Assembly (NCBI RefSeq): GCF_037042905.1 | Contig: NC_087250.1 | Coordinates: 11,286,001 to 11,350,000, forward strand | Source: Lytechinus pictus | Taxonomy: Eukaryota | Direction of reading: 5' to 3' | DNA length: 64,000 bases | Shown here: positions 17,652 through 58,525 of the stretch, one piece after another | Numbering within the stretch: position 1 is the first letter of the stretch | Layout: the number at the start of each line of letters is the position of its first letter | Notes under the pieces: model-generated | Told to the model about the DNA's origin: nothing | The model's input: the letters and a program-made list of their open reading frames with translations, nothing else | Database searches by the model: none | Made by a program: the position numbers and the translations under genes

Positions 17652-19190
17652 ATTCACATGTTCATGTTCATGTTCAGTTCATTTATTCATTTCTAAAAAA
17701 GGCATTGAGTACAAATATATACATAGAAAAGACACTTCAAATATAAACATCAGTATTTTAAAGATGTAAACATGCAAAACACTACTTTAAATAAATACAG
17801 TGATATTCATGTATATTTAGGCCTGTGTACAGTAATAATATGAGAAACGAAAAGGAGGACTTAAAATAAAGCCAAAAGTGGCCTTGTGAGTTAAAGTCTT
17901 CTAAATTAATAAATTCTAATTTGGAGGCTACTTAGTATATACAATAATCAAAGCATATATGACAACTTAGGTTAAAAAGTAAGTGGATTAAGAAACGGAC
18001 ATACGGTATAAGATAAGCAAAAAAAAATATGGCAAATCGTCTACAATATTGTAACATAGCTGCAAAATTAGTAATATTTAGAAAAAAATATTGTTTTGAT
18101 TTTCTTTTAAAGAGGGAAAGAGACTTGCATGTGCGAACAAATTTCGGAATAGAATTCCAGATTGTTGGGAAGGTGAAACGTATAGCTTTTTGTACATATG
18201 ACTTTCCTACTTTCCATAAATGAAACAAATTACATATACGTGTAGTGTGACAATGTACAACATTTTTTTATACAAGACATTTTACTGATCTTATTTGGTA
18301 ATATTTTTTAAAGTAGAAAAACCCCAATATTGCAACTTGATATTGATAAAGGTGGAAAATATTCAAAGTATTAAGTTTACAGAATAAAAGAGTTGAGGGT
18401 GAAAGGTAATGACTGTTGGTGCATATACGAACTGCTCTCTTTTGTAATTTAAATAGTTTATCTAATTTGGATTTCATGCAATTACCCAAACAGCAATACA
18501 ATAAAGAATGTGTGATAATATTAATGAATTGTAAATAGAGAGTAATGCAGGTTTAGGAAGAAAACTTCTTAATTTGTACATAATTCCAGTACATTTCGAT
18601 ACTTTAGTAGTTAAATAGTTCATGTGTGAATCCCAATTCAAATTTTCATCAACATGAACAAAAACAAACAACTTTAGACTTAGATAATTGGATTGAATTA
18701 ATACTTAGAGTAAGATCATTACATATATTGCTTGCATTAGATAATTTGTTATGAAAGTATATAAACGAGGATTTATCAATGTTTACCACCAGTTTGCTGG
18801 CTTTAAACCATCGGGATACATGTAGTAATTCAGAATTAATGTTTTCATTTATATATTTAAAGTCTGGTTGGGTATAAAAAAGTGTAGTTATCGTCTGCAT
18901 ACATTATGAAATCAAATTTACTAGATGACATAACAATATCGTTTTCGTAAACGAGAAAAAGCAAGGGACCTAATATCGAACCTTGGGGGACTCCATGTTC
19001 TCCATAACTAAGCTATAAGAAGATGATTTATTGTTAAAGTTAGTAAATTGATAACGATTATGTAAATAATTTGTAAACCAGATAAATGGAAGCCCACGTA
19101 CACCATAATATTGTAATTTGGTTAACAAAATATTGTGATCTACTATATCAAATGCCTTGGAAAGGTCAATGAATATTCCTACTAACTCAT
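17652..19190 (-). mobile_element. LINE B, 3' part (RT pseudogene, 3' UTR and tandem-repeat tail), CR1/L2 group
   Basis: Minus-strand translation gives GIFIDLSKAFDIVDH, GVPQGSILGPLLFL, MYADD, LQKRAVRI and IWNSIP across several frameshifts. The tail reads aataaatgaactgaacatgaacatgaac at ~17655-17690. Confidence 0.9.
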
Positions 19191-19390
19191 TTAAAAGTCT
19201 TTTTGAATAAATATGTTTTCAAAGTGGATTTAAACTTAGGTGGAGAAGAGTTCTTTACATATGATGGGGTGGTATTCCAAAGTGAAGGGGCAGCATGGAC
19301 AAAGAATCGTTCTCCATAAAATTGGTCTGAACACAAGGACAATTTAAAAGATCCTTTTGAGCTGATCGAAGTTTACGAAATGGCACATAC
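19191..19390 (-). pseudogene. LINE A, C-terminal end of ORF2
   Basis: Continues LINE A from 27640 across the TTAA site (APKYLIDCLV-KYVPFRKLRS, then GERFFVHAAPSLWN and FKSTLKTYLF) to a stop at ~19191. Confidence 0.8.
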
Positions 19391-27639: not shown

Positions 27640-28498
27640 CTAAACAATCAATAAGATATTTTGGAGCCACTGCATGGAGGCACTGATAAGTTACTTAAAC
27701 ATTACACTGGACTCGGAGCCAATGTAGTAATTTTATATAGGTGTGATAGGTGTGATGTGGGAATGTTTTTTTTAGTACGGGTGACTAGTCGTGCTGCAGA
27801 GTTTTGAATTACTTGTAATTTGTTAATTTGGGAATCGGGCATCCTATAGAGTAAACTACTGCAGTAATCTAAATGACACATTACAAGAGCCTAGACAAGC
27901 TGCTTGGTAGTCTTTGCATCTAAGAATTGACGAACTCTACCAAGTTTACATGGAGCAAAAGATGCTGATTTACATTTTGCAGAAACAAACTTGTTAATGA
28001 CCATATTTTCATCAAATATCACACCCAGGTTTCTGGCTGTATATGTGGGCATAATTGATGATGTATCAAACTTAACAGCTGGAAGTTTCATACTTCTGCG
28101 AAAATGAGATGTCAGATGTAAAATCTCTGTTTTCTGATCATTCAATTTCAGACCATTTGCTGTGGACCACTGTTTGATCTCCCTTACACATTTTTCTACT
28201 TGGGAGATTGCATCATCAATGTTACGTGGTTTAAAAGAAGCATATACTTGCGTGTCATCAGCATAACAAATCCCAGATAATCCATTACACGCTATCACAT
28301 CATGTAGAGGAGATGAGAACATGGTAAATAACAGCGGACCTACCACTGAACCTTGGGGTATGCCTATACAAGGCTTGTGAACTGAAGATTCTAACCCGTT
28401 TATTACTACTCTCTGTTTTCTTTGAGTCAAATATGATTCAAACCACTTATAAGCAAGGCCCGTAATGCCGAACCTCACTTTCAACCTCTGCAATAATA
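27640..28498 (-). pseudogene. LINE A, RT core (C-terminal half)
   Basis: ORF 27891-28544 contains GIPQGSVVGPLLF, YADDTQ, LKLNDQKTE and ARNLGVIFD. Downstream frames show DYCSS, LQVIQNSAARLV and LHWL. Confidence 0.92.
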
Positions 28499-28644
28499 AA
28501 GCAATATTGACTGGCCTGGGGACGATACGACATATATCGCCCAAACTAGATTTATATCACCCGAGTCGAAGACGAGGGTGATATAAATCTAGTGAGGGCG
28601 ATATATGTCCTTTTGCCCCCAGGCCAGTCAATATTGCTATTATT
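28492..28644. repeat. ~150-bp terminal hairpin of the Crypton element
   Basis: gcaatattgactggcctgggg...tagatttatatcaccc, loop gagtcgaagacga, gggtgatataaatcta...ccccaggccagtcaatattgc. Confidence 0.92.
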
Positions 28645-29351: not shown

Positions 29352-29663
29352 GCGCGTGAGTGTTGCTCCTCAGCTTGTGCCTAACTTCTGACTTTTTTAT
29401 ATGTTTCTGATATGAGTGATTGTCTCTACTGTGAACCAAGTGGAAGGGACAGTATCAAGGAAGTTACAGGACAATTTTTAGTAGTATCTTCATTTTATTA
29501 TGTGAGTAGTTGTGTTTTCTATTTCACAACATTGAACTTGCTTAAAAGGCACTGGCCATTTTGAACAGCAACCATATATATAGGCCTACACATTATAGCC
29601 TGAGGTGGTCAAGCTGAACTTGAATCAAAAGCTGTCTATTGTTTCCAAACAATAGAACCCCAA

Positions 29664-32354
29664 ATGACCATGGCACTGACCAGCTTAGTGACCGCTGGTG
29701 TCATCCTACTGTTATGTGACACAACTGTATCGAGTACTTCACATACATATGATTATGTAGCGAATGAGCATATACCTAGGCACAATATATGGAAATCTAA
29801 TGGCAAATACTGCGGCAAACACTCGTTTTATTACCCTAACTCGGTTGCCACGTTCCAAACACTTCTTCTACAAGCAGGAGATATAAGTCCTAACCCAGGT
29901 CCTAATGAAAATGATAGACAACTTGAATATTACCAATCACAAACCGGAAGAATCTCACAACCCGATTCAGACTATAAATATATATATTCTCGAGAGGAGC
30001 TATATAATCTAAACCCTCTTCATCGTTACTCGGGCTGCAAGCAAAGGCTTTCGCGGCCAATTTGGGAAACCATTAATAGTCTCGGTATTGGCAACACAAA
30101 GAAAACTAGACGAGGAAAAGGGGGAAGGGCTGTCAGACCATTGCCTGTACATGCATCTACAAACTCTCCTGATGATGATTCTAACATTGTTGGACGCCCT
30201 CTAGGATCTGCAGAGATTGCCAATTACAACTCCAATATGTGCCTGAAATGTCGGAAATCAATCCACCTAAATCAGAAGAGTATCACCTGTGTGGGCTGCA
30301 AATCTCTGTGGCACCTGAAGTGCACCAATGTACCACTCTCAAGGTATGACGACGGATCCACTAATTCTGGGAATTGGGAATGCTTCAGATGTGACCACCA
30401 ATCTGATGAAGACCAGCAATACAACCAGGATAGATGTCAACGTGAATATCCAATTAAAATTTCTACTAAAGGACTCAAGATTGCTCACATTAATATTCAT
30501 AGTCTCCTAGCTAAACATGACCATCTTAAAGAGAAATTAGTCCACCGGCCATTTGATGTCTTTACTGTATCAGAAACTTTGTTAGACGGTAGTGTAGTTG
30601 AAGCGGAGATACATCTGAATGGATTTACTATTGAGAGAGCTGATAGAAACCGTCATGGTGGAGGGGTAGCTGTGTATGTTTCGAATGAACTGGTCTATAC
30701 TCGCAGATTAGATTTAGAAATTGAAGGTATTGAGTCGTTGTGGGTAGAAGTTATATTGACAAACTCAACTCATATTCTTATAGGGACGTTCTACCGACCC
30801 CCGAGTTCAAAGGTCGAGTATCAAATGTTAATTGGTCAGTCAATCACCAGAGCAACAAGTGAACAAAAAGAGTTATACATTCTTGGTGATTTTAATTGGG
30901 ATATGTACTGTAGAGACTCTAAGTTTGTTAAACAGCTATGCAACCAGAATTACCTGAAGCAAATGATTAATTTCCCAACTAGGATTACAGAAACTAGCAC
31001 AAGTCTGATTGATCTGATCTTGACAAATACCCCCCAAAATGTATGTGAAAGTAAAGTACTCTCTGAAGGATTGAGTGACCATAGTCTGGTTTATGTAGTT
31101 CGGAAAATGTTCAAACCTAAAATACCACCAAAAATAGTACAGTTCAGATCTTACAAGAAGTTTAAAGAAGCTGATTTTATTAATGATCTTAGAAGTGCTG
31201 ACTTGAACTACTACCTGGGCAACCCAGATTTCCATGTAGCTTGGAATTCATGGAAATCTGGCTTCCTTAAAGTATGCGAAAAGCATGCACCGTGTATAAC
31301 TAGGAGAGTCAGGGGTGAAAAGACTCCATGGGTTACAGAAGAATTCATTGACCTGTCAAGAAATCGAGACAGACTGAAACTGAAGGCAGAACAAAGTAGG
31401 TCATCTGCAGATTGGAAACAGTATCGTTCAGTTAGAAATCATGTCAACAACCTGCGCCAAACACTAAAGAAAGGCTATTACCAGAGTAGTATCTTAGAAA
31501 ACAGAAACAACTCTGCCAAACTATGGAAAGTATTGAAAACCTTGACAACATGTGATACTAAATTTGCCACAGACCAGCTCATTGTAAATGGAGATCAAGT
31601 GTCTGACACCCTTGACATGGCCAATGAATTCAACACATACTTTGTATCTGTAGGTGCCAGTTTGGCTTTAAATTTTACCACAGGGGTAGAATGTAGTATT
31701 GACGAGTTACTTACCTGTATAACTAAGCCTACCCCTGGTACTAAATTTGTCTTTGAACAGTTTGTGGAACAAAACGTATCAAATATCATGAAGATGCTGC
31801 AAACATCCAAAGCAAAGGGATTGGATGGTCTTGATACTGTGCTTCTAAAAGCAGCCTCTCCATTGATTTGTACTCACCTCACTTCACTCTTTAATCGCTC
31901 TCTAGATTCTGGATTTATCCCCGATGAATGGAAACATGCTAAAGTAACTCCCATTCACAAGGGAGGTGAGAAACATGACCCTAATAACTATAGACCTATA
32001 TCTGTCATCCCTGTGGTTATGAAAATATTCGAAAGACTAGTCCATACCCAGGTTCAAGATTACTTTTTGGAACATAATTTATTTGCTAGTGAACAGTCTG
32101 GATTTCGGAAGAACCACTCAACAAGCACAGTACTTACCTATTTGAGTGATCACCTGTACAAGCAAATGGATCAGGGTCGACTAACGGGAGTTGTGTTTTT
32201 AGACCTCAAGAAGGCATTTGACTCAGTCGACCATGATCTATTGCTTCACAAACTTACCATGTATGGAATTCTTGGAACAGAGTATAATTGGTTTGAAAAC
32301 TACCTGAAACATCGTTCACAGTGTACTTCTGTAAAAGATCTTCCTCTGATTTGA
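29664..32354 (+). CDS. LINE D polyprotein: hydrophobic leader, 2A-like motif, PHD finger, apurinic-like endonuclease, N-terminal RT
   Basis: GDISPNPGP at aa 72-80; C4HC3 PHD at aa 193-243; APE motifs HINIHSL, VSET, GGGVA, FYRPP, LGDFN, IDLI, SDH; RT motifs NYRPIS, QSGFR, FLDLKKAFDSVDH. Truncated by a frameshift. Confidence 0.92.
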   Translation: MTMALTSLVTAGVILLLCDTTVSSTSHTYDYVANEHIPRHNIWKSNGKYCGKHSFYYPNSVATFQTLLLQAGDISPNPGPNENDRQLEYYQSQTGRISQPDSDYKYIYSREELYNLNPLHRYSGCKQRLSRPIWETINSLGIGNTKKTRRGKGGRAVRPLPVHASTNSPDDDSNIVGRPLGSAEIANYNSNMCLKCRKSIHLNQKSITCVGCKSLWHLKCTNVPLSRYDDGSTNSGNWECFRCDHQSDEDQQYNQDRCQREYPIKISTKGLKIAHINIHSLLAKHDHLKEKLVHRPFDVFTVSETLLDGSVVEAEIHLNGFTIERADRNRHGGGVAVYVSNELVYTRRLDLEIEGIESLWVEVILTNSTHILIGTFYRPPSSKVEYQMLIGQSITRATSEQKELYILGDFNWDMYCRDSKFVKQLCNQNYLKQMINFPTRITETSTSLIDLILTNTPQNVCESKVLSEGLSDHSLVYVVRKMFKPKIPPKIVQFRSYKKFKEADFINDLRSADLNYYLGNPDFHVAWNSWKSGFLKVCEKHAPCITRRVRGEKTPWVTEEFIDLSRNRDRLKLKAEQSRSSADWKQYRSVRNHVNNLRQTLKKGYYQSSILENRNNSAKLWKVLKTLTTCDTKFATDQLIVNGDQVSDTLDMANEFNTYFVSVGASLALNFTTGVECSIDELLTCITKPTPGTKFVFEQFVEQNVSNIMKMLQTSKAKGLDGLDTVLLKAASPLICTHLTSLFNRSLDSGFIPDEWKHAKVTPIHKGGEKHDPNNYRPISVIPVVMKIFERLVHTQVQDYFLEHNLFASEQSGFRKNHSTSTVLTYLSDHLYKQMDQGRLTGVVFLDLKKAFDSVDHDLLLHKLTMYGILGTEYNWFENYLKHRSQCTSVKDLPLI

Positions 32355-32373
32355 AAAAAAAGTACAAACAGGA

Positions 32374-33283
32374 GTGCCTCAAGGCTCAATCTTGGGGCCT
32401 CTCCTGTTCACTATAATGGTGAATGACATGCCCAATGTACTTAAGAAATGTAAGATCATGCTCTATGCTGATGATACTGCATTAATGTACAGTGCTAAAT
32501 GCACTGAAGAAATTGAAACAGAAATCAATGCTGATCTTCAGAGAATAAGTCAATGGCTAATATTAAATCGACTTACATTAAACCCTGAAAAGTCGAAATT
32601 CATGTTATTTGGTACCTCAAACAAACTAAAAAAATGCAAATCCCTTAAATGTGCAAGTTGATAATCATGCCCTTGAAAGAGTTTCAAATTTTAAACACCT
32701 GGGCACGTGGTTGGACGAGTCCCTCACCTGGCAAAAACAAGTTGATGAGATGAGCAAAAAGATTGGGTCACGTATTGCCTTACTAAGTAGACTAAGAAAG
32801 TACTTAACTATCGATAGTGCCAAACTCCTAGCTAATGTATTGATAACACCTCATTTTGACTACTGCAGTCCTTCCTGGGCAAACTGTTCACAATACGTAA
32901 AGAATGTTCTCATAGCCCAGCATAAGAAAATGGCAAGACTTGTCCTTAGATGCAATTGTATGACACCTACTGTTGAGGTATTGTCACAACTGAAATGGGT
33001 AAACATTGAAGAAAGATGGAAATTCAACAAATGTAAATTAATGTATAATGCCCTGAATGGAGAGGGTCCTAAATATATTTGTGATATGTTTACTAAAAGT
33101 AATAGTGTCCACACTCACAGTACGAGGGGTGCCACCTCACAAGGCCTGTTGGTGCCTATGGTCAAAACACAGATGGGGAAAAAAGCTTTTCTCATGAAGG
33201 GTCACTCTTGTGGAACGGACTTCCTTCAGCTCTTAAAAATGCAGCAACCAAAGAAGCATTCACCACCTTATACTGGAGATTAG
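32374..33283 (+). pseudogene. LINE D RT C-terminal portion (frameshifted pieces)
   Basis: PQGSILGPLLF, YADDT, LNPEKS, FKHLG and FDYCS in two ORFs (32374-32661, 32651-33283). Confidence 0.9.
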
Positions 33284-45311: not shown

Positions 45312-45788
45312 TAACTGTACAATTTTTGAATATCTTCACTTTCGATCTCATCATGATGAACGGTGTTACCTTTCCCGAGTTTTTTCAACTCCACCAGCGC
45401 TGCTTTGAACGCCACATTAGCCTTGGTAAATTCTGGATCCTTTACCATATCAATTACATCTGAACGCACAGATTTATGGTGCCTATTCAAGCAAGATTTC
45501 AGAGAATTTAACGATGCTGTTTTGTAATGTGATCCGTCCGATTTACGTAATTCCACATAGAACTTTACGTAATTCCACATAGAACTTACTCAGAATTGGA
45601 GCGAGTGTGCTCTTGTCCACAGTCTCCAAATCAATATCGATGCATTTCTCAAACAGATACTCCTTGAAAAGTGTGATCGCTTGCTTTGTAGATCTCTTAG
45701 TGCTGTCTGCATCCTTATTTCCAAGAATTTTACTAAATTCTTCTTCGTCGAAGCTTGCGAAACGCTTTGGTTTCGTGGAGGCAGCCAT
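45312..45788 (-). pseudogene. Crypton ORF N-terminal (core-binding) part
   Basis: MAASTKPKRFAS...STKRST...FKEYL...LSKFYVELRKSDGSHYKTASL...LNRH...KKLGKGNTVHH, typical of DUF3504/Crypton proteins. Frameshifted by a 22-bp tandem duplication at 45542-45585. Confidence 0.85.
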
Positions 45789-46132
45789 CTTGAGATTGCG
45801 AAATACTCTGTTTACGAATACAACGCCAGCTACGCCCGGCCCGCGCCCGCTGCTCAAAATTATTTTACGTACAAAACCTATGCACCAGCAAGAATCGCCT
45901 GCGGCGGGATTCGGGTAACAAAAATTCGGAGAAAATTTAAGAATGCCCGGATGTTAGCGCTGCCTTTTATTGCCCGCTACATTTCCACGCATTTTCTCAT
46001 TGACTTTCTTGAGCGGTCAATAAATTGGGCCCGTGGATAAACAAATTGAATTTTATTGACCGGCCATTTGATCCCAGGATTAAGCAGGCAACAATGTTTT
46101 AAAGTTGCCCTGCTCAGATGTCTGATACGGTT

Positions 46133-46434
46133 AATAATACATCATGTTTAATTGTATCGAATGCTGAAGAAATATCGAGCAGTACAAGAATGGTTTCATT
46201 TCCCTTGTCTAAGGAAGAGTCGATGTCGTTTGAAACTTTCAACAGAGCTGTTTCACAACTATGAAATGGGCGATATGCAGACTAAATTGGAGACTACAGA
46301 TCACTATCTGATAGATAATTCTGAATCTGTAGCACTGCAGCTCTTTTAATGATTTTACCTAGAAATGCTAGGTTTGCAACAGGTCGATAATTCTTCAGCT
46401 CCTCTTGGCGAATTTAGGGCTCTTGAGAAGAGGG
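46133..46434 (-). pseudogene. LINE A, RT N-terminal segment between Crypton and Gypsy
   Basis: Reads KNYRPVANLAFLGKII...SAYRPFHSCETALLKVSNDI...LVLLDISSAFDTIKHDV with internal stops. Confidence 0.88.
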
Positions 46435-46588
46435 TGTTTCGATATCAAAATTGATATCTAAGCACTTCATACACCTCCCGCAACATGGATACCAAGCCTG
46501 TTGATTGACCTGCCTAGCTGGCCTGTATAATAAAACTGTATATAAGTTCACTACCAAAGTCTCCACCAGAGTCCTTTGTATTGGATCA
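46435..46588 (+). repeat. 5' LTR
   Basis: Direct repeat of 52088-52241 with 5 mismatches by eye. Contains tataataaa. Confidence 0.95.
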
Positions 46589-46600
46589 TGGTGGCAGCTG
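46589..46600 (+). promoter_or_regulatory. Primer binding site, probably tRNA-Leu type
   Basis: tggtggcagc immediately after the 5' LTR. Confidence 0.7.
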
Positions 46601-47238
46601 AAACCAGTGATCGCTTTTGAAATGACAAGGATCAAGTAACCAGCTACTGTTGGGAAGTAAACTGCATGTCTTTTTACCGAAATTCGCATGCTTCATAACC
46701 TACTAACCACTGGTACGGGTGCCCGCTCGCACCGGCTATCGCATCGCTACTGTACGTGAATACCGTACTGTGCATACTCAATGCACTGTCACAGCAAACC
46801 AAATCGTGTTGTCAGAAGGAGCGAGATGCCAACGGTGACTGGAAACAATCAAATATAGCCTGAGTAAGTTATAACTGTGTTCAATCACTGGCACAGAGGT
46901 CTGCATCAGAAGATCAACATACACTAAAAGTTGATAAAACCTAAATAACTTAATTTTCTGGACTGGAGTGTGAACAACGAAATAATATTTTCCTAATATT
47001 AATTGTAAATCTGGAGTGTGAGAAGTGAGTGGGAGTGACCAGCATTTTCACTGCATGAAACACCTGATGACATTCACACAGGGCTGTGAGTGCGTTACAG
47101 GTATCATCACCAGTCGACCTGTGACTGTAAGGAGCGTTCACACGTGGATATAATCAGACATTAATATCTACACTCATTTATTTAAATACCTAATACGTAC
47201 AGGGAACATACACAATTAGTAGTGGAAAATATCCAGAA

Positions 47239-48300
47239 ATGAACTGGGAGGCAACAGACCTACCCGAAGAATTCCAGCTTTTCAGACAAAGAATGGAACT
47301 GATTCTAGCAGACCAAGACATAACTGATCAGAGAAAAGTGTCTATGAAAATCAAGATTGCTGTTGGCAATGAAGGCTTGCGTCGAATCAATGCATCGGGG
47401 CTATCAGAGACCGATAAAGAAAAACCGCAAGAGCTATGGAGACTATTAGAGGCACAGTTAAAGGTCAATATCAATTTTCGCATACACCGCTTAGAGCTAA
47501 TGCGGTACAGGCAGAAAACAGATGAAACGATCGATGAATTCGTAACCAGGTGTAGGGACAAAGCCAAAAATTGCGATTTCGAGGAAGCTGAGTTAAATGA
47601 GCGAATCATGGAGCCAGTGATTGCGTCAACTCCAAGTCTCGAATTCCAAAAGTCATTGCTAGATCAACCGAAAGGTAACAAGGTCAAACAAATTTTGGTA
47701 GAAGGTCGTAAATACGAGGCAGTCGCTGCGAGCCGACATTAAGGAGCTTTCGATTTGCACGTCGACTAGTGGACTGCGACGAAAGTACGTCATAATAGCC
47801 TGCTTTGTGTTTACGGTATACAGAACCCCTGGAGTAAATCACCACGTGGCTTCAATCAATGGGCAAGGATTTGATTGCTCGTTTACTACGTTTTGAACGA
47901 GCGTGATCTGAGCGAAATCCACGTTCGTCATCATGAAGTTGACGTGTCAGGAATGGCTTGCACATGCTCAGTGTCTTCCAATCATGTGATCGACTGACTT
48001 TGTATACCATCAACACAAAGCAGACTACTATGACGTACTTTCGTCGCAGTCCACTAGTCGACGTGCAAATCGAAAGCTCCCTAATGTCTTGAGACACTAG
48101 ACCCTAAACAGAATATCGATTCGTTCAAGCGTAACCAGGGACGAAAAGCGTGTGGTAACTGCGGACGTTTCCACAAACCTCGTCAATGCCCTGCGTATGA
48201 CGATGAGTGCCGTGCCTGTGGCACCAAGGGCCATTGGGCCAAATTTTGTCATAAATCGAAAAATGATCGTAGTCGTAAACAGAATCGTTGATCAGATGAC
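47239..48300 (+). pseudogene. Gypsy gag with two zinc knuckles, interrupted by a MITE
   Basis: ORF 47239-47742 has RQKTDETIDEFVTRCR. After the MITE the sequence reads CGNCGRFH...CPAYDDECRACGTKGHWAKFC (~48150-48250). Confidence 0.85.
47742..48081. mobile_element. ~340-bp Harbinger-like MITE in gag
   Basis: ~80-bp TIRs ggagctttcgatttgcacgtcgactagtggactgcgacgaaagtacgtcata / tatgacgtactttcgtcgcagtccactagtcgacgtgcaaatcgaaagctccc, with TTA/TAA flanks. Confidence 0.88.
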
Positions 48301-48312
48301 CGAAGATCCGAC

Positions 48313-51300
48313 ATGGTATCTGATGATCGGAAACCAAAACAAAACAAATCACGATCAAAGTCGAAAAGTGGAAAGAGTAAACCTATAAGCCAAATGGACA
48401 TAACACATGATACTACCACAGATCATGATTATTATCAATCTACAGATAGTCCATTCAACGTAGCACAATTCGACACCATACACACTAGTGGACCACACAC
48501 AGTTGTAAATCCAGAAGGTACTGTAGCATTTGCTAACATTGACATAATATGCCCACAGAGAGTAGGTCAATATACGCTTTACCTAAAAGTGGACTCGGGG
48601 GCAAGTGCTAACACTATCACAGTACGTACCGCCAAAGCAATATACGGTCGAAACAGGGAATCAGTAGTGAAGCAAACAACAATCAAACTTATAGCTTACG
48701 GAGAGATACCAATTCCATGTAAGGGTACACTAGACATAAAGTTTAGATACAAGAGTACAAAATGGTCAGCACAGACATTCTATGTAGCAGATGTCAATGG
48801 TCCAGCGATCCTAGGGATGTTAGGTTGCACTGACCTTGGAATTATCACAATTCACTCAATGCACGACAAAACACCTACATCCATTCCTCAACCTAAACAA
48901 ACACCTATTACAAGTGTAAGGAATCTCAAACAAGAATATCTTAATCAGTTTGACGCTATTGGTAGTTTCCAGGGGAAGGCAATGCTTCATGTCAAGGACG
49001 ATGCTAAACCTACCATAGACGCACCCCGCAAGTGCAGCGTACACTTGAAAGACAAAATCAAGGCGAAACTGGACAATATGGAGCAGCAAAGAGTCATCAG
49101 AAAAATCGAGTACCACACTGATTGGTGCAGCTCCATGACCACTGTTGTGAAGAAAGATGGATCCATCAGGATTTGTCTTGACCCCAGGAGGTTAAATGAT
49201 GCCTTGAAGAGATGCCCGCACAAGGTACCAACCTTGGGAGAGGTCCAACCTGTCTTCGCAGGAGCCCAGTACTTCTCTAAGTTAGACGCGAAGGCTGGTT
49301 ACTTGTCGGTTCACCTATCAGAGGAGTGCCAGGATCTCACCACATTCCGTACACCATTTGGAAGGTACTGCTTCCAAAGACTATCATTTGGGTTATGTAC
49401 TAGTCAGGATATCTTCCAGCAGCGTATGGATAGGATATTCCAAAATGTGCCAGGCTGCATATGCATCGCAGATGACATAGCGATCGTAGGAAGAACTGAG
49501 GAGGAACACGATAGGAATCTCTACTTACTCATGGAGACGGCAAAGCAAGAAGGCTTAGTGTTCAACAGCTCCAAGTGTACTATCAAGAAGGAAGCCATCA
49601 ACTTCTTTGGTTCCAAGAACACTAGATCAGGTATCTACCCAGATCCCAGCAAGGTAGAAGCTATCACATCAATGCCATCACCCAAGGACAAGAAAGATGT
49701 TCAGAGAAGCCTAGGATTATTCACATACCTAGCAGCATACATTCCTAACTTCTCAGAGAAGTCAGCGCCACTTCGAGAACTTCTACAGAAGGAAGTACCA
49801 TTCATTTGGGACGATGATCATGAACATTCCTTGAACAGCCCGAAAAGTACAGTATCATCAGGTGCATGTCTACAATTCTATGACCCAAAGAAAGAGACAA
49901 CTCTTGACGTAGATGCATCGATGAAAGGGCTAGGAACATGCCTGCTCCAGCAAGGCAAACCATTTGCATCCAAAAGTCTTTCCACTGCACAGTCTTTCCA
50001 CTGCACAGTCCAACTATTCCAACATAGAGAGGGAAACCTTAGCCGTAGTGTTTGGTATCAACCGCTTCCATAAATATCTATTCGGGAAGGAATTCACCGT
50101 CATAACACATCACAGACCATTGGAGATGATATGGAAGAAACCTCTTAGAAGTGCACCTCCACGTCTACAGAGATTGCTTATTAAAGTCCAAGGATACCGA
50201 AGTCAAGTCAAGTATCGACCAAGAAAAGACATGATTATTTCCGATACATTGAGCCGACTTCATAATCCCAAGGAAGCACGCGATGTTCCGCTAGATGTCA
50301 GAGTGGAATCCATCTGCTCTGAAGCCGAAGATTCGCACCAGATTGACTTGATATACTTTGGACAACACAAGAGAACAGAGCTTCAGAGAGAAACAGCTAA
50401 TGACCATGTTCTCAGATCACTATGGCAAATAGTCACTCAGGGATGGCCTGAGACCATCCAAGAATTGCCGACATCCCTTCGTCAATTTTGGTCTTACAGA
50501 GATGAAATCGGAGTATCACACGGAGTACTCTTCAAGGGAAGTCAAGTCATCATACTGAAGACACTAAGGAATGACATCCTTAGACAGCTTCACCTAGGAC
50601 ACATGGGAATCGTGAGACAGTGTTCTGGCCAAAAATCAACAAGGACATTGATCAGTTGATAAAGCAGTGTGAAACATGCCAGAAACACCAAGCAAGACAG
50701 CAGAAAGAGCCACTGCATCCCCATGATGTACCACCAGCACCATGGACCAGACTAGGAACCGACTTGTTCATGCTCAATAGACAAGAGTATCTACTCGTTA
50801 CTGATTACTATTCCAAGTATCCGATCATTGCTATGCTAACCAATACATCCAGTGCAGCTATAGCAAGAGAGATGACGGGAATCTTCAGTCTGTTCGGTCC
50901 ACCATAAGAGATTGTGTCCGACAACGGTCCACAATTTTTCGGGAAACCATTCCAAGACATGTGCAAGAAGTGGAATATCAAGCACATCACTTCTTCACCG
51001 CACTATCCAAAATCCAACAGATTAGCTGAGAGAATTGTTCGTACAATCAAAAATATTTTGACGCAGTGTTCTCAAACTAGCCAAGACAGTCAACTAGCCA
51101 TGCTGCACCTGAGAGCAACACCAGTTGACAATAATCTGAGATCACCAGCAGAGATGTTGTTTGGAACACCAATCCGAACCACATTGCCAAGTCACTATCT
51201 TTCGAGAGATTCTGCTGCCACCGAGTTTCTCTTGAATAGGCAATCACAATGAAGGAAGTGCATGATCGACATGCAAGTTCTGATTTGCCACCACTGCATG

Positions 51301-52241: not shown

Positions 52242-54554
52242 GAGGGAGCACTGTAGCATTTTTAAGACTTTCTGGAAATAACCCTTCACTAAATGATTGG
52301 TTAATAATTCTTGTTATAAAAGGAACAAGTTCAGGAGTACACTTCTTCACAAGAGATGTAGGTATCGGGTCTAATTTACAAGTTGCTGAAGTTGACTTCT
52401 TGATAATAGTCTAAACTTCATTGAAATTCATTTCCTTAAATCTAGAGAAACCACAATTGCTACAAGGGTATTCACGAGTTGCAACCCGTTCAACAGACAC
52501 ATTAGACAAATCATCAGAAATTTGTTTTACTTTAGTGTCAAAGAAATTTGGAAAACGTTCTGGCAATAAAATACAATCAGGGTTAGATTTAGGAAGAGTT
52601 AGATCAGGCCTAGACCTAAATAGTTTCTCAAACTTCTGATACAGTTCGCGGGAATTGCAGTTCTCAAATTGTCTATGATGATATTCTTTCTTTCTTGTAG
52701 TAAGCACTTTCTTATAATCACATGAAGCCTTCATAAAGATTTGATGATGGATCTCTAATCTGATTGAGCGCCATTTCCGTTCTATTTGTCTGAGTTCCTG
52801 CTTCTTTTTACGAATATCTTCATTCAACCATGGTGCATGGGTACGAGGGAGGACTAAGCGAGTGAGCAAAGGTGCATGTTCGTCAAGCAACTCATGAAGC
52901 ACGGTGTCATAGAGCTGTACCTGCTGTTCCAGATCTTCGATGGAAGATGTCAACAGTTTTGATTGACGAATGCTCTCGCGAAACTCATCAAGATTCAAGT
53001 TGTTAAGTTTCCTGAATTTAACTTCAGTTCTTCGTTGCTTGGGCTTTTCAATCATCAGAGAACAAAGAATTGCTGAGTGATCAGAAGGCAGATAGCTTGT
53101 CACATCCAGCTCAGAGATGAGATTTGTAGTTTCACGTGACAGCAGAAGATCCAGCGTATGTCCACTCCTGTGCGTTGGTAAAGTGACATGTTGTTTCAAA
53201 TTGACTGAACTAATGATTTCAAGAAACCGGGCTGCATCTTTATTAAGAGGATTATCAACATGAAAGTTAAAATCCCCAGCCAACATTAGCTGGTTAGGAT
53301 AAACAGCTATCCGCTCAAGAAATAAAGAGAACTCATCAAAGAAGATCTGAGATGTTAAACAACCTTTTCCAGTTCTTTGAGGTCGATAGACCACCACTAG
53401 GCGGAGAAATGGCCTTCCCTTTACACCAATAAGAAGGTCAATATATTCAAACGATGTATACTGTTTCATGTCGTAACTATGGACTTTAAAAGTTTTTTTT
53501 CTCGATGCAAACTCCTACTCCACCACCTGATCGACCTTTGCGTGGAGTATGATGGAAGTCATAGTTCTGAAGACACCCGAAAATATCAGTTATAGTTCTA
53601 TCATCTTTAAAGTTTCCTGAGAGCCATGTCTCCGTTAATGCAAGGATATTGATGTGGTTACTGATGACAAATTCACATATTGAAGAAGATTTAGAGTTTA
53701 CAGACCTTGCATTCCAAAGGGCAAAACGAAAGGTTGAAGAATTATCAAAAGTGGCGATGTAACGATCTGGAGAAGAGGAATGATATTCCAAAGAATAGGA
53801 GGCCTGATTACGGGTAACACGCTTCTTTCCACCTTTTCTCCCTCACCTTGTTGGACGACGTCTCTTTGATATGCCGAGTTTATTATTGATAGCCCATGTT
53901 GTAGCATCAAGGCGGCGGTGTAAATTGGGAATGGCGAGGAGTGTTTTCCTATCATATTTAATTCTTTTTGTCGATACATTCTGTATAGCTGAAGCATGAA
54001 GATAACCATCGCTGGATGTACTCTCATTGGTCTGTTGTGAAGGTCCTGGGTTGGTTTGAACATCACCACACTGCACAATGTTGAATGTAGAATCAGAGTT
54101 ACTGTAATAGAGAACCATTTTCCCAATAAACTTTACTTTGACAATGAAGTAATCAGAATGCTTCTCGAGGCACACAAAAGACTGAAGACTTCATAGGCTT
54201 TCTTCTCTGTCTGCCTGGCTGGAGCAGAAGGGGATGACCAAAGCAACAATGAACAAGAAATGAATAGAAGACATTGTCCAACTAGTAGGATAGCTGTGGA
54301 CAATGAAGCTATTGTGAAAAGTACTGCAATGTCCATGCAATGGAGTCTACTCAGTTTCAGAATCCAATCAAACTGATATCCAGGTTTCCAGAGATATATC
54401 TAGAATGAAGCAATTTTACAGCTGTAAATCAGTCCAGTGGAATCAGTAATAATTCCAAAGAAGTACAGTAATATCAATTTCCAGCAAAATATATGAAAGT
54501 TGAAGAGAGGTAGCCAAGCAGCTGTTCGGTGCTTGACCAGTGTTGAAAGAAGAG
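52242..54554 (-). mobile_element. LINE A, 5' part (UTR, hydrophobic leader, 2A-like motif, endonuclease, linker)
   Basis: GDVQTNPGP; WNARSV, LTETW, GGGVG, VYRP, AGDFN, TLDL, SDH; LDPIPT...KNATVLP, joining 46429 (LLKSP) when the LTR element is removed. The 5' boundary is approximate. Confidence 0.9.
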
Positions 54555-55670
54555 TTTGTTTCAGTAGAAGTTGATCGATTGTTAAGGAATTTTTTATATA
54601 ATGTATTTTTCTTTCTGATGTGTCTTAATAATTCAGGAGTAATCCATGGCTTACGTATAAAAGTTTTCTTCTTCTTTTGTAAAATCAAAGGCAAATTCTT
54701 ATCATACAAAATGTTAAACTTATTCAAAGATATACCAAAGGCAGTATTTACTTCATTGCAAGAATACACTGATGACCAATCAGTATTATAAAGTTCTTTT
54801 TGTAAATGTTTCACACCAGCATCAGTAATTCTACGTCTATATGTGTTATTGGTCCTTTGCTGATTCTTTAATAGCAAGTCAGTTATATTTAATATAAGAA
54901 ATACAGGTAAATGATCAGTTATATCAACAGAAAAAATACCACTTTCCACATTTATTGTAAAGGCGTTTAAGAAAATATTATCAATAAGAGATGCTGTATT
55001 TAAAGTGATACGGGTGGGTTGATTAATGACAGGATGTAGACCAAAAGAAGAGTTCGTATTTAAAAACGAATTTGTGTTATCTTCTTTTTCTTTCATCATA
55101 TCAATATTAAAATCCCCTGTCATGATAATCTCTCTCTTATCATTACCAAGTATGCTAAGAGTTTGAGAGTAAAAATCAATGAATGATATAACATCAGTAC
55201 TTGGCTTTCTATAAAAAACACCTATTGTCAAATTATCCTTTTCATGTCTAAATAAGTCAATAAATAAGTATTGACATGTTTCTGTATCTGCAGAGAGAAA
55301 AATATCATTTCTTACAGAGACATTTATATCAGTTTTAATAAAAAGACAAACGCCACCACCTCTGCCTGTTATTCTATCAAAGTTTACAAAATCATAACCA
55401 TCTAAGTGAAATGGAATTAAAGGTGTGCCGGATATCCATGTTTCTGATATAGCTATTACCGATAACCTATTTTCTAGAGTAGACAAGAAATCTGAAATGA
55501 TATCAAAGTTTTTATGAAGACTACGCGCATTGAAATGTATCAGACTGAATTCATTATTACTTTGAAAATGTACATTGAACTCTTACGGTGTATAATAATT
55601 AGAAGTACATGCATTTGATAAACAGTTTACATTAAGTTCTGGATCAAGATCAACAAGAGGATTACTCATA
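54555..55670 (-). pseudogene. LINE B ORF2 N-terminus (endonuclease)
   Basis: HFNARSL, ISETW, GGGVC, FYRKP, TGDFN, PTRIT, IDNI, TDH and KPWIT. The endonuclease call is firm; assignment to the same element as 17652-19190 is inferred. Confidence 0.85.
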
Positions 55671-55873: not shown

Positions 55874-58525
55874 ATTTTTATTTTATTTTATTTTTTTATT
55901 TATTTCTGATATTTTGACAGGGTAGCCCATTCACCAATAAGTAGTGGTCTTCCATGAGGCCCTGAATAACAATAAACATATTTACAAAATGCATAACGTA
56001 TGTACAGAATGTTACATCATTAAGATTCACATTAGGATTTGAATGTAAAACGAAACATTAACAAACTTAGCAGCAAACAAAACGCAGACGGGCACTCGTT
56101 TGACGTATAATAAAATATCAATAAATCAAATTAATTAAGAAGGACATCTTGAAAATACTGATAATATACACCAAATCATCAAGGTCATGCTAACACAAAA
56201 TAAGCACAACAGTGGATGTTCCGCAAGTTATTTATAAATTACAAGTTCTTTTAAACATTCTCTTAAATGAAATGACAGAAGGAGCTGTTCTAATTGAATT
56301 ATCAAGCTTATTCCATTTAAATATTGAAGATACGATTGGACTACACTTATAACAATCAGTGCGAAACTTGGGCACGCGTAAATATCAACTGTCTCTCTGT
56401 CTGGTATGATGTTCATGTACATCATTTGGATTGGTTAAGTTTACCTGAAGGTAAGAAGGTGCTAAATTATGGACACATTTAAATATCATCAAAACGCGAC
56501 TGAGCTCAAATCGTTTGTCTAGTGTCATCCATTTAAGACTTGTGAACAAATCAGCCGACGGTGTGTCGTATGTCTTGTTCAATATAATTCTTGCAGCCCT
56601 CTTCTGAATTTTTTGCAGCTTAATTGTATGGGATTGAAATCTATTCGACCATACAGCAGAACAGTAATCAAATCTTGGCAACACTAAACTGTTATAAAGC
56701 AACTTTAAGGACTGCACAGTCATAGAACTTTTCGCTCTCTTTATTATGCCAATGCTTTTCTGAGTAAGTTTACATACATTTTCTATTTGTTTTGACCATT
56801 TCAGTTCTTCATCTATCAAAACTCCTAAGCATTTGGTGAATTGAACTCTATTTATCAAATCACCGTTTAACAAAATCGTGAAAGAATCTATTTTCCTGAG
56901 ATTAGCACGAGAACCTATTATCATGACACAAGTTTTTTCAGTGTTGAGGACGAGCTGATTATCTTTAATCCATGCCATGACCTTGTTTAATGCAACAGTT
57001 AATTTTTCTTCCAAAACTGTCGCATCATTTGCACTGACGGTAAGTGTCGTGTCGTCAGCGTACATATCTATAATACCTTCATGAATACATTCAGGTAAAC
57101 TATTAACATATATTGAAAATAAAAGGGGACCTAGAATTGACCCTTGTGGCACGCCTAATTTGACGATTGAAGGGTGCGATTTGGCTCCTTTAAATTGTGT
57201 CACTTGTTGTCGATCAAATAAATATGATTTGAACCAAGTGATAGTCCTCTTACTACAACCAATGCAAGTTAATTTCTTTAAAAGCAGCTCATGGTCCACG
57301 GTATCAAAGGCCTTCCGAAGATCTATGAACGCAACTCCAGAAATTAAATTGTTATCAATGTTTAACGACCACTGATTTACAAGTTTTGCAAGGGCAGTAG
57401 TTGTTGAATGCATAGGCCGAAAACCAGATTGATTTGGGTGTAATAAATTATTCACGTCCAAGAATTCACTTAGCTGTTGGTGAACAGCCCTTTCTAAAAT
57501 TTTACTCACGATTGGTAATATAGAAATTGGACGGTAATTATTCAACGAAGACATATCACCAGATTTAAATATTGGTACTACCCGAGCCTTTTTTCCATTC
57601 ACGAGGAACAACTCCAGTAGTAAGGGATTTGTTAATAATATCACAAAGGGACTCTGCGATAACATTTTTTGTCATCTTTAAAAGTTTGCAGCTGACATGA
57701 TCTTCCCCAGTTGATTTATCTTTACTCAGATTATCAATCTGTTTCAAAACAAAATCTCTAGTAATCAACTCTAGCTCAAATTGAGAGTGAATTGAACCAA
57801 CATTTGTATCATCTTCTACTTGAACTCTCTGTTGAGACGCATCCCTTTGCAGGTCCTTAGTAATATTAGTAGCATTTGAAATGAAAAATTCATTAAATGC
57901 TTCAGCAATATTTGCATTGCCCGACACATCTGTTCCATCTACGTTTATGGTGTTGGGAGAAATAGGTAATGACTTGGGCACAAGTTCTCTCAAACATCTC
58001 CACATTTTCTTACTATTGTTTTGATTTTGTGAAATCTGGTTAGCATTATATTCTTTTTTACTTTTTCTCATGAGATGAATAACTTTATTTTTCAGAAATT
58101 TGTATGTGTCCCAAATATCATTTTTTTTGTTAACTTTAGCTGTTTTTAGAACCTTATCACGTTCCTTCATTAGCTTGACGACCTCGTCAGATATCCAAGG
58201 ACAAGCTTTTTTTCTTATCCGCTTTTTACAAAAGGGAATGTGCCTGTTGATTACATCATTGAAAAAAGTCAACCATACATCCCAAGCAACATCAACATCA
58301 TCTATATCTTTTACGACCTGCCAAGGAATATTTCTCAATTCACTATAAAATGTTTCCTCATCAAGATTTTAAAATGAACGAAATTCTGCAAATTCGGAAT
58401 CTTTATACATCTTAGCACTGAAATCGCGAATTGTATACACCAAATAATGATCACTTATACTAGTTTCAAATATTCCCCATTCACTGTATAGTTCTTTGTC
58501 TGATACAAATATCAAATCAATTAAA
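55874..58525 (-). mobile_element. LINE C, 5'-truncated CR1/L2-group element inserted in the LINE B inter-ORF spacer
   Basis: IDLIF..SDH, CPWIS, NYRPIS, FIDLRKAFDTVDH, PQGSILGP, YADDT. The 3' end cagggcc...gggctaccctg plus (TAAAA)n tail at 55874-55965 resembles the LINE D tail. Confidence 0.92.

Follow-up and report, generated by a model that had tools for sequence, protein, structure and literature searches.

Directly after the 2A-like site of a set of LINE retrotransposons lies a stretch of about 55 residues which, judged from its family alignment, is a real, unannotated module common to dozens of related elements. From its position, its pattern of conservation and structure predictions that show no compact fold, all described below, we infer that the block forms a flexible N-terminal partner-binding tail of the endonuclease-reverse transcriptase protein, which would bind the element's own RNA and/or act as a nuclear-import signal. 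The probability that we attach to this reading is roughly 45%.

Two copies of the block in Lytechinus pictus

The whole stretch of DNA analysed here (the window) comprises 64,000 nucleotides of the Lytechinus pictus genome, and it holds two block-bearing elements, both of which are decayed LINE retrotransposons: LINE D on the plus strand and, on the minus strand, a divergent element referred to as the second LINE (Table 1). The translation of LINE D (29604-32354, +) contains GDISPNPGPNENDRQLEYYQSQTGRISQPDSDYKYIYSREELYNLNPLHRYSGCKQRLSRPIWETINSLGIGNTKKTRRGKGGR. Ahead of its endonuclease stands GDISPNPGP (29877-29903), a putative 2A-like site that conforms to the pattern G-D-[VI]-x-x-N-P-G-P. The apurinic/apyrimidinic-type (APE) endonuclease is followed by a reverse transcriptase (RT) that continues in two shifted frames, which makes LINE D an APE-type non-LTR retrotransposon. 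Its RT is spread over three consecutive open reading frames, each in a different frame, and matched R2 and L1 ORF2p chains. By appearance, the block-bearing elements look CR1/L2-like.

The block of LINE D reads YKYIYSREELYNL...RLSRPIWETINSLGI...TRRGKGG (29973-30125, +). Its YKYIY starts at 29973, and the Y-I just ahead of the motif 1 core YSREELY creates a Y-x-Y. The second LINE reads GDVQTNPGPSQQTNESTSSDGYLHASAIQNVSTKRIKYDRKTLLAIPNLHRRLDATTWAINNKLGISKRRRPTR up to a stop (tblastn against LINE D, E 8.5e-08, 32.7% identity), and its block runs directly into the endonuclease without a PHD finger. The spacing from the N of NPGP to the Tyr of motif 1 is 32 residues in the second LINE versus 31 in LINE D. 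A six-frame profile scan of the window found the block only in LINE D and the minus-strand copy, all other scores being -1.8 or lower.

The preliminary description of this DNA had placed the block about 30 residues after NPGP in LINE D and, at the same spacing, in the divergent LINE A. This is confirmed: the Tyr of YSREELY (29985) is 27 residues past the final Pro, and a second copy, presumably in this LINE A, lies at 53807-53995. The span given for LINE D, 29973..30128, starts correctly, while its end takes in one extra codon, as TRRGKGG ends at 30125. The description as a conserved N-terminal module with a basic patch also agrees with the family alignment, where the patch itself is conserved.

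Table 1. Positions of the block and of the surrounding features in the two LINEs of the window
Feature	Position	Strand	Basis
LINE D, first Met and hydrophobic leader MTMALTSLVTAGVILLLCDTTVSS, 5' of the 2A-like site	29664..29735	+	translation
LINE D, 2A-like VATFQTLLLQAGDISPNPGP; NPGP at 29892-29903	29844..29903	+	sequence
LINE D, conserved block (motif 1, variable linker, motif 2, basic tail)	29958..30155	+	profile score 60.8, i-E 2.3e-20; family alignment
LINE D, motif 1 core YSREELY (Y0, S+1, R+2, L+5, Y+6)	29985..30005	+	conservation counts
LINE D, motif 2 RLSRPIWETINSLGI; L, W, I and LGI conserved	30045..30089	+	alignment; AlphaFold helix
LINE D, basic tail TKKTRRGKGGRAVR; family consensus T-[HR]-R-G-[KR]-R-x-G	30096..30137	+	alignment
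LINE D, PHD-type zinc finger	30240..30392	+	Pfam PF00628, E 0.0003, 21.2 bits, under the 24-bit cut-off; AlphaFold pLDDT ~92
LINE D, apurinic/apyrimidinic-type endonuclease	30495..31091	+	Pfam PF03372, E 1.9e-10; PF14529, E 7e-07; AlphaFold pLDDT 91-98
LINE D, reverse transcriptase, with two frame changes (near 32350-32354 and 32630-32661)	31971..33283	+	Pfam PF00078, E 7e-19
Second LINE, first Met and hydrophobic leader MSSIHFLFIVALVIPFCSSQA; in-frame TAA ~6 codons further	54212..54274	-	translation
Second LINE, 2A-like STFNIVQCGDVQTNPGP (GDVQTNPGP)	54041..54091	-	sequence
Second LINE, conserved block	53807..53995	-	profile score 46.8, i-E 5.5e-16
Second LINE, motif 1 YDRKTLL	53936-53956	-	sequence
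Second LINE, motif 2 RLDATTWAINNKLGI	53870-53914	-	sequence
Second LINE, basic tail, broken by TGA at 53843-53845	from 53869	-	sequence

Size and conservation of the block family

A profile of the block retrieved 51 database cluster representatives at E≤0.001 (best 1.2e-17), which places it far beyond chance, and 16 further proteins carry it. In two cluster look-ups, all named members were sea-urchin proteins (Diadema antillarum, L. pictus and L. variegatus). No Pfam family covers the block, and none of the RNA-binding or NLS families matches it. A word-index search for homologues of the isolated block (region 81-180) gave 19 candidates, none of them scored, and the ESM Atlas search returned only unnamed clusters, with a top score of 0.85. 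In every member whose sequence continues, the block lies upstream of an APE endonuclease. NPG is found 13-37 residues upstream in 37 of the 55 aligned blocks on which the conservation counts are based; 15 of the other 18 blocks fall inside the N-terminal 64 residues of the predicted protein.

In motif 1, 53 of the 55 blocks have Y, 50 have D, S, T or N at +1, 49 have L at +5, 53 are hydrophobic at +8 and 31 have N at +9. The +6 position (Phi) is hydrophobic in 27 blocks; among the rest H is the most frequent (20), followed by R (4), Q (3) and C (1). In motif 2, the counts are 45 for L, 51 for W and 53, 47 and 48 for the three residues of LGI; they are 49, 51 and 46 for the T, R and G of the tail, which holds a median of 8 K/R within the 16 residues past LGI. 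Since the profile behind the 51 matches had Y and L invariant, the conservation of these two residues is partly circular; further members carry H or N in place of Y, I in place of L or N in place of Phi. Within the alignment, +8, the Trp, LGI and T-[HR]-R-G equal Y and L in their conservation. The counts therefore point to a constraint on the face formed by positions 0, +5 and +8 and on motif 2 rather than on L-Phi, the eIF4E-contacting pair. The preliminary description had made conservation of Y, L and Phi the test of its motif, and the outcome is divided: Y and L(+5) are retained, whereas a hydrophobic Phi is confined to about half of the blocks.

Predicted structure of the tail

AlphaFold modelling of the block alone (75-residue query) resulted in a mean pLDDT of 74.5 and a pTM of 0.31, with short helices at residues 18-24, 26-29 and 39-48, the last of which is the motif 2 helix (pLDDT ~89). 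In a 400-residue model of LINE D, 100 of the 108 N-terminal residues, of which the block occupies 19-84, had a pLDDT <50, while the PHD finger and the endonuclease reached 91-98, and the tail was not docked on either of these two domains. The two runs conflict on the confidence of the helix (89 versus <50), a disagreement that probably stems from the alignment quality of one of them. A Foldseek search with the block gave no matches at E≤10, and a wide VIA-align search found none among 48,161 chains at a Z of at least 2. Overall, the block is predicted to be without a compact fold, in a non-globular and accessible context; burial in a folded domain, which would have spoken against the preliminary description, is not what the models predict.

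Motif 2 resembles a second Trp motif of the same proteins, ...P-K-K-L-W-K-T-L-K-S-L..., found in the interval between endonuclease and RT. The hhalign comparison gave a probability of 60% and a P of 8.6e-05 over 22 columns, a short, post hoc match in which the internal set had been chosen by a motif-derived pattern that favours it; all 11 control segments had a P of at least 0.088. We assume that the internal motif corresponds to the region of L1 W365, going by approximate spacing and the L1 sequence. According to the available excerpt of Thawani et al. (2023, PMC10830416), the EN linker/NTE of human L1 ORF2p (W365, F366, N371, R375, R385, N388) touches single-stranded template RNA and cDNA.

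A proposed flexible tail and its possible partners

Single-ORF, 2A-bearing LINEs have no ORF1p, which raises the question of how their enzyme locates the RNA that belongs to it, reaches the nucleus and ceases to be translated. As we read the block, it would be a conserved, intrinsically flexible tail of the endonuclease-RT protein that, after the 2A 'skip', would sit 13-37 residues from the new N-terminus. It would consist of motif 1, h-x-Y-[DST]-x3-L-x2-h-N, as the start of a helix; of motif 2, L-P-x2-V-W-x2-I-x2-L-G-I, as a Trp helix past a variable linker; and of a K/R-rich tail, T-[HR]-R-G-[KR]-R-x-G. Such a tail may fold only upon a partner, and it would most likely grip nucleic acid in the form of the element's own RNA, act as a nuclear-import signal, or both; in two-ORF LINEs these are jobs of ORF1p. 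Y and L(+5) would then be retained for starting and packing the first helix and not for eIF4E. A hydrophobic staple pairs the hydrophobic residue that precedes an S/T/D N-cap with a second one at N4 (i, i+5). The family matches this as a pattern, though not as a contact, with Y at 0 in 53/55, D/S/T/N at +1 in 50/55 and L at +5 in 49/55, and the AlphaFold helix of motif 1, which begins at +4, agrees only roughly with the start predicted from a staple. Readings of the block as a PAM2 (PABP-binding) motif, an AT-hook or a helix-turn-helix were dropped, as the spacings or residues that define them are not conserved in the family alignment.

Hydrophobic residues so strongly conserved in a segment with predicted disorder would suit a protein partner too, eIF4E included. 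The block may bind eIF4E in the manner of eIF4G and the 4E-BPs, at least where R(+2) is combined with a hydrophobic Phi, as in both window copies. Motif 1 would supply the canonical Y-x4-L-Phi helix for the dorsal face of eIF4E, and motif 2 a non-canonical hydrophobic element for the lateral face. The nascent LINE protein would then either grab the eIF4E on its own capped mRNA (cis preference) or oust eIF4G and halt translation before reverse transcription. We consider this unlikely. The window copies, YSREELY and YDRKTLL, do match Y-x4-L-Phi, as the preliminary description had it, with R at +2 and a hydrophobic +8; across the family, the fit of Y-x4-L-[LMFIVWY] falls to 26 of 55 blocks, even with the doubtful match P0148 counted in. 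R/K at +2 goes with 21 of the 27 hydrophobic-Phi blocks versus 2 of the 28 polar-Phi blocks, the +8 position is hydrophobic almost throughout (53/55), and R+2 and a hydrophobic +8 are features of the eIF4G (YDREFLLGF) and 4E-T (YTKEELLDI) motifs. The predicted non-globular state of the region is likewise in favour. Past Phi, the next conserved hydrophobic element brings L at 6-19 and W at 11-24 residues, to be set beside the 12-30 residues C-terminal of the canonical motif at which non-canonical motifs sit in the excerpt available from Peter et al. (2017, PMC5538437). However, the element is tightly conserved and predicted to be helical, which is atypical of non-canonical 4E motifs; those of 4E-BPs are called 'variable' in that excerpt, and motif 2, LGI and T-H-R-G show far tighter conservation. 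The L-Phi contacts are described there as 'the most conserved interactions' in eIF4E complexes, yet Phi is polar in 28 of 55 blocks (H in 20), including P0001 and P0059, the closest full-length, intact-looking relatives of LINE D (both H), and the members with Y changed to H or N, L to I or Phi to N depart from the motif as well.

Database evidence on eIF4E binding stayed below significance. The PDB sequence search with the block profile returned 13 sequences at E≤10, none of them significant (leucine-rich-repeat proteins, RPA1, RPC6 and two Drosophila eIF4G chains). The two sub-threshold chains, 5t47_B (E 0.7) and 4uec_B (E 0.89), are presumably the 4E-binding fragment of Drosophila eIF4G. 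Pfam eIF_4EBP was the sole family matched by more than one of the 51 members (two members, best E 0.057, sub-threshold), with P0137 matching profile positions 48-110 at E 0.069 and 13.5 bits. All these matches to 4E-binding proteins mirror a motif already known to be present, and the window copies alone gave no PDB match at E≤10 and no Pfam match. Moreover, bare Y-x4-L-Phi is no commoner than chance: 120 related LINE proteins contain it at a rate of 1.3 per 1000 residues versus 1.27 after shuffling, and 97 of them have at least one occurrence. Database scans for eIF4E motifs likewise give chance-level occurrences in the excerpt of Gosselin et al. (2013, PMC3763552), which also supplies a precedent in Angel1, a nuclease of the same fold that bears an eIF4E-binding motif. 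A more specific proposal for the R(+2)/hydrophobic-Phi subtype is that a bipartite 4E-binding region (canonical helix plus lateral Trp helix), fused to an RNA-binding basic tail, would let the LINE protein seize eIF4E on the element's own mRNA cap while emerging from the ribosome just after the 2A skip; as a sequence-based idea it strikes us as rather unlikely. If true, it would explain cis preference in single-ORF LINEs, the mRNA being switched from translation to reverse transcription, and the H-type relatives would have lost or altered the 4E-binding function.

Two other partners were weighed. Recruitment of the repressor cap-binding protein 4EHP through a GIGYF-type region (Y-x-Y-x4-L-Phi) was proposed in the preliminary description from YIYSREELY of LINE D, and we regard it as highly improbable: the first Tyr (-2) is Y in 4 of 55 blocks, as against 22 with I and 7 with L, the second window copy likewise shows I there, and a literal PLAL auxiliary motif is found in none of the 55 segments. 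In the excerpt of Peter et al. (2017, PMC5538437), moreover, the first Tyr has no role in 4EHP specificity, which is conferred by auxiliary sequences. Alternatively, the tail could dock within the LINE protein, on the RT, the thumb or the C-terminal segment, or else on its own RNP. It would thereby latch the enzyme in a stabilised or gated state, and motif 2 would be a paralogue of the internal Trp helix. Conserved hydrophobic residues in a region without its own fold, the likeness of motif 2 to the motif at the EN-linker/NTE position and the strict co-occurrence of the tail with an endonuclease-RT protein would all suit such docking. On the other hand, the AlphaFold model, from which the RT and C-terminal parts of the frame-shifted window copy were left out, keeps the tail off the PHD finger and endonuclease, and the block occurs in just 2 of 120 relatives picked by endonuclease/RT similarity, so the enzyme core has no need of it. 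We hold docking to be fairly unlikely. Taken together, the interpretation given in the preliminary description is partly supported, and a flexible tail bound to nucleic acid and/or the import machinery is the reading that we prefer.

The three-part tail supplies residues for mutation, namely Y, L+5, W, LGI and T-H-R-G. If eIF4E binding proves true, the block would be the first retrotransposon-encoded 4E-binding protein and would offer a concrete mechanism of cis preference; if it proves false, the module remains a new domain-level annotation in a large marine-invertebrate LINE family. In the literature searched, no paper joined 'non-LTR retrotransposon' with 'eIF4E-binding motif', and a literal search of papers for the basic-tail strings gave one irrelevant match.

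Comparison with known systems

With the 4E-binding regions of eIF4G, 4E-BPs and 4E-T, the block shares the Y, the L(+5), a helix after an extended Y-x-x, a further hydrophobic element that follows 11-24 residues later and a predicted non-globular setting; about half of the family adds R(+2) with a hydrophobic Phi. It differs from them in the unconserved Phi (27/55), in having a Trp helix, LGI and T-H-R-G downstream instead of a variable loop, and in the lack of a significant sequence match. The 4EHP-binding region of GIGYF1/2 has its Y-x-Y-x4-L-Phi in common with LINE D alone of the two window copies, and the rarity of the first Tyr and the missing PLAL motif set the family apart from it. Angel1, a CCR4-family protein with the endonuclease/exonuclease/phosphatase fold, belongs to the same fold superfamily as the LINE endonuclease and likewise carries Y-x4-L-Phi. 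Its motif, in contrast, lies in the C-terminal domain, is vertebrate-specific and binds eIF4E Tyr-dependently, as stated in the excerpt of Gosselin et al. (2013, PMC3763552), whereas the LINE tail is known here from its sequence. The EN-linker/NTE of LINE ORF2 proteins resembles motif 2 in its amphipathic Trp helix, P-x2-[LV]-W-K-T-[IL]-x-S-L, followed by basic residues; motif 2, however, is N-terminal of the endonuclease, while the NTE-position motif lies between endonuclease and RT.

The nearest described relatives are the 2A-bearing, APE-type non-LTR elements STR-51, STR-61, STR-142 and STR-197_SP of sea urchins. In the excerpt available from Odon et al. (2013, PMC3708506), their tract from 2A to APE spans 90-115 residues and has 'no motifs suggesting a function', and ORF1 is missing from most 2A-bearing non-LTR elements. 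Among the papers retrieved, this is the single one in which the tract is mentioned. Going by that excerpt, they share with the block family a single long ORF, an NPGP in the N-terminal region, an uncharacterised tract ahead of APE and, as far as its named members go, sea-urchin hosts. In the block family, by contrast, two conserved motifs and a basic tail can be discerned in this tract, and LINE D has a PHD finger between tract and APE, merging two of the three arrangements given in the same excerpt of Odon et al.

Organization of the two block-bearing LINEs

This region of eukaryotic DNA holds a nest of non-LTR elements. When its six reading frames were scanned with the profile, two copies of the block only were found, one in LINE D and one in a divergent LINE on the minus strand; it is absent from the further LINE fragments of the window, which share 24–47% identity with LINE D. 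From its first methionine, LINE D encodes a hydrophobic leader, the 2A-like GDISPNPGP, the block (motif 1, a variable linker, the Trp-containing motif 2 with LGI, and a basic tail), a PHD-type finger, an APE endonuclease and the start of the RT. LINE D is a decayed copy, as its RT is carried on in two further frames. In the second LINE a leader and GDVQTNPGP precede IKYDRKTLLAIPNLHRRLDATTWAINNKLGISKRRRPTR; this element is without a PHD finger, the block passing directly into the endonuclease, and it contains in-frame stops and, in its downstream part, frame shifts. Both are dead copies. Translations and the family profile confirmed that the two elements share a conserved block: the LINE D string is present as given in the preliminary description, and the motif Tyr follows the N of NPGP at nearly equal spacing in the two copies, 31 residues in LINE D and 32 in the second LINE. 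N-terminal 2A-like sequences have been described as doubling as signal sequence and recoding element (Roulston et al., 2016).

Features of the two block-bearing LINEs and other LINE fragments in the window
Feature	Position	Strand	Details
LINE D frame	29604-32354	+	916 codons without stop; first Met 29664
LINE D signal-peptide-like hydrophobic leader	29664-29735	+	MTMALTSLVTAGVILLLC..., ~50-60 residues upstream of 2A
LINE D string within the block	29973-30125	+	YKYIYSREELYNL ... RLSRPIWETINSLGI ... TRRGKGG
LINE D internal motif	~31521-31544	+	LWKVLKTL, residues 620-627; same region of related proteins P0003-P0116
LINE D RT continuation	32350-32661 and 32630-33283	+	two further frames
LINE D frame changes needed for RT read-through	32350-32354 and 32630-32661	+	
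Second LINE signal-peptide-like hydrophobic leader	54212-54274	-	MSSIHFLFIVALVIPFCSSQA, ~50-60 residues upstream of 2A
Second LINE stop	~54191-54193	-	in-frame TAA after leader
Second LINE stop	53843-53845	-	TGA within basic tail
Other LINE fragments	19030-19215, 27891-28556, 54443-55582, 56385-58524	-	RT/endonuclease pieces, other families
Other LINE fragment	45573-50659	+	RT/endonuclease pieces, other families

Distribution and conservation of the block

The bare Y-x4-L-Phi motif is no commoner than chance: across 120 related LINE proteins its density is 1.3 per 1000 residues, compared with 1.27 in shuffled sequences, and 97 of the proteins contain it at least once; the same caution was voiced for database scans of the motif by Gosselin et al. 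(2013; PMC3763552). The whole block is well beyond chance. Its four-sequence profile (A1) matched 51 proteins at E ≤ 0.001 among 1.84 billion representatives, three of them at E ≤ 1e-10 (best E 1.2e-17), and the 51-row alignment (A2), used in a word-limited second search, returned 27 matches, 16 of them new. In two look-ups, named members were 'uncharacterized protein' entries only, all from sea urchins (Diadema antillarum, Lytechinus pictus and L. variegatus), the second look-up adding no organism. The local Pfam copy has no family over the block, and for the tract between 2A and APE in sea-urchin non-LTR elements Odon et al. (2013; PMC3708506) noted 'no motifs suggesting a function'. The module is real and unannotated.

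In 37 of 55 aligned blocks NPG lies 13–37 residues upstream (median 22), and 15 of the remaining 18 are confined to residues 1–64 of the predicted protein. An APE endonuclease follows in 8 of 10 block-bearing proteins scanned, where the protein continues, and also in several proteins of the second search. The block is not a general clade feature: among the 120 relatives, chosen by whole-protein similarity, 41 show NPGP within residues 1–260 and only P0001 and P0059 have the block, the other NPGP-bearing proteins passing from the 2A to the endonuclease directly or through a PHD finger. Precomputed domain lists of many relatives (P0005-P0022, P0026, P0027 and others) include PF27108 and PF28493, which the local Pfam copy did not report for P0005 or P0027; neither is listed for P0001 or P0059.

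Conservation was counted over 55 rows (the two window copies, P0001, P0059 and all 51 matches, including the doubtful P0145 and P0148 and several partial matches). The expected conservation of motif 1 was borne out for Y (53/55) and L at +5 (49/55), counts that are partly circular because the search profile held both invariant, but not for Phi at +6, which is hydrophobic in 27 rows only (otherwise H 20, R 4, Q 3, C 1), a count not inflated because Phi already varied in that profile (Y, L, H, H). Later matches show Y>H (P0186), Y>N (P0149, P0190), L>I (P0194) and Phi = N (P0191). Position +1 is D/S/T/N in 50 rows, +8 hydrophobic in 53 and +9 N in 31; in motif 2, L, W and I are kept in 45, 51 and 39 rows, L, G and I of LGI in 53, 47 and 48, and T, [HR], R and G of the tail in 49, 49, 51 and 46; of the 16 residues that follow LGI, a median of 8 are K/R. 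Two subtypes can be distinguished, Y-x-R-x2-L-[LFY] and Y-D-[VTS]-x2-L-H, with R/K at +2 in 21 of 27 rows with hydrophobic Phi against 2 of 28 with polar Phi. Both window copies belong to the first, and P0001 (47% identity to LINE D over 82% of the query) and P0059, the closest full-length relatives of LINE D, to the second.

Predicted structure

The model of the 75-residue block, built on the 51-row alignment, had a mean pLDDT of 74.5 (about 89 over the Y...L and W...LGI stretches, 64–72 elsewhere), a pTM of 0.31 and short helices at residues 18-24, 26-29 and 39-48, the first beginning at +4 after an extended Y-S-R. Foldseek returned 0 structural neighbours at E ≤ 10 and VIA-align 0 of 48,161 chains at Z ≥ 2, an indication that the modelled block does not form a compact domain. 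A longer model of 400 residues (alignment A4, 80 rows) spanned the post-2A Pro through the end of the endonuclease; in it, pLDDT was below 50 for 100 of the first 108 residues (segments 4-79, 84-90 and 92-108), and no secondary structure was predicted there; the PHD finger reached about 92 and the endonuclease 91–98. As the block (residues 19-84) falls within this stretch, its packing on either domain is not predicted, so that the burial in a folded domain considered in the preliminary description finds no counterpart in the models. The lower confidence of the block in the longer model is probably due to poorer alignment of its columns.

Possible roles of the block

The block had been proposed to combine an eIF4E/4EHP-binding-like module with a basic RNA-binding patch. 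The eIF4E motif pattern fits both window copies, and in the first subtype, which resembles the motifs of eIF4G and 4E-T, the likeness exceeds three residues (+1 cap residue, R at +2, hydrophobic +8). The region is also predicted to be accessible, and unbiased library scans give a weak lean in this direction: the 13 PDB sequences listed include two chains of the 4E-binding fragment of Drosophila eIF4G (E 0.7 and 0.89), and Pfam eIF_4EBP is the sole family matched by more than one of the 51 members (two members, best E 0.057; related protein P0137, E 0.069 and 13.5 bits, cut-off 24 bits). However, these matches are all non-significant and mirror the motif already seen, and the window copies have no PDB or Pfam match. 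The distance of the second hydrophobic element, 6–19 residues (L) or 11–24 residues (W) after Phi, overlaps with the 12–30 residues between canonical and non-canonical motifs (Peter et al., 2017; PMC5538437); the tight conservation and predicted helix of this element are not typical of such motifs. The same source ascribes 'the most conserved interactions' in eIF4E complexes to L and Phi, yet half of the family has a polar Phi, and in those members the remainder of the block is still conserved. We regard an eIF4E-binding region as an unlikely identity for the block. The 4EHP (Y-x-Y) claim fared worse, as the first Tyr is present in 4 of 55 rows (I 22, L 7) and the 55 segments contain no PLAL auxiliary motif; Peter et al. 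(2017) describe this Tyr as without role in 4EHP specificity. As a candidate, the combined interpretation would suit both copies in the window together with half of the family, and it fails conservation at Phi and the first Tyr.

Six animal-type eIF4E sequences were obtained from metagenome contigs (Pfam IF4E E ~1e-57 in three scanned). Five contigs with the eIF4E pattern (L001, L006, L007, L008 and L014) encode short lysine/asparagine-rich eIF4E-like proteins, in which GIEPMWEDE is kept and the animal-type HPLQN..W..WFF start is absent.

We tentatively prefer to read the block as a flexible partner-binding N-terminal tail, most likely serving RNA binding and nuclear import, in LINEs without ORF1p (probability about 0.45). 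The block profile gave weak but position-consistent matches inside many relatives, on ...N-P-K-K-L-W-K-T-L-K-S-L... between endonuclease and RT (consensus ...N-[PS]-K-K-[LF]-W-K-T-[LI]-K-[ST]-L...; pattern matched in 68 of 121 proteins). In hhalign, motif 2 aligned to this internal region with a probability of 60% (P 8.6e-05, 22 columns), the internal set having been picked by a motif-derived pattern that favours the match; one reversed and ten offset control segments all gave P ≥ 0.088. The likeness could have arisen by duplication of a part, or by convergence on a helix that contacts RNA. Sub-threshold matches to the 7a6h_P/6i52_C pair of PDB chains, human RPC6 SHEVWKYICELGISKV with motif 2 and an RPA1 fragment SRIRYTVANLHSLN with the H-type motif 1 (E 0.19 each), are probably due to chance.

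The LINE D internal motif lies at a roughly equivalent distance upstream of the RT core as the EN-linker/NTE of L1 ORF2p, and is a tentative counterpart of W365. An RNA-holding element would plausibly suit the proposed basic RNA-binding patch better than the cap-protein idea. In the EN-linker/NTE of human L1 ORF2p, residues W365, F366, N371, R375, R385 and N388 contact single-stranded template RNA and cDNA (Thawani et al., 2023; PMC10830416). By analogy, through the likeness of motif 2 to the internal motif at roughly this position, a Trp helix with a basic run behind it is plausible as such an element.
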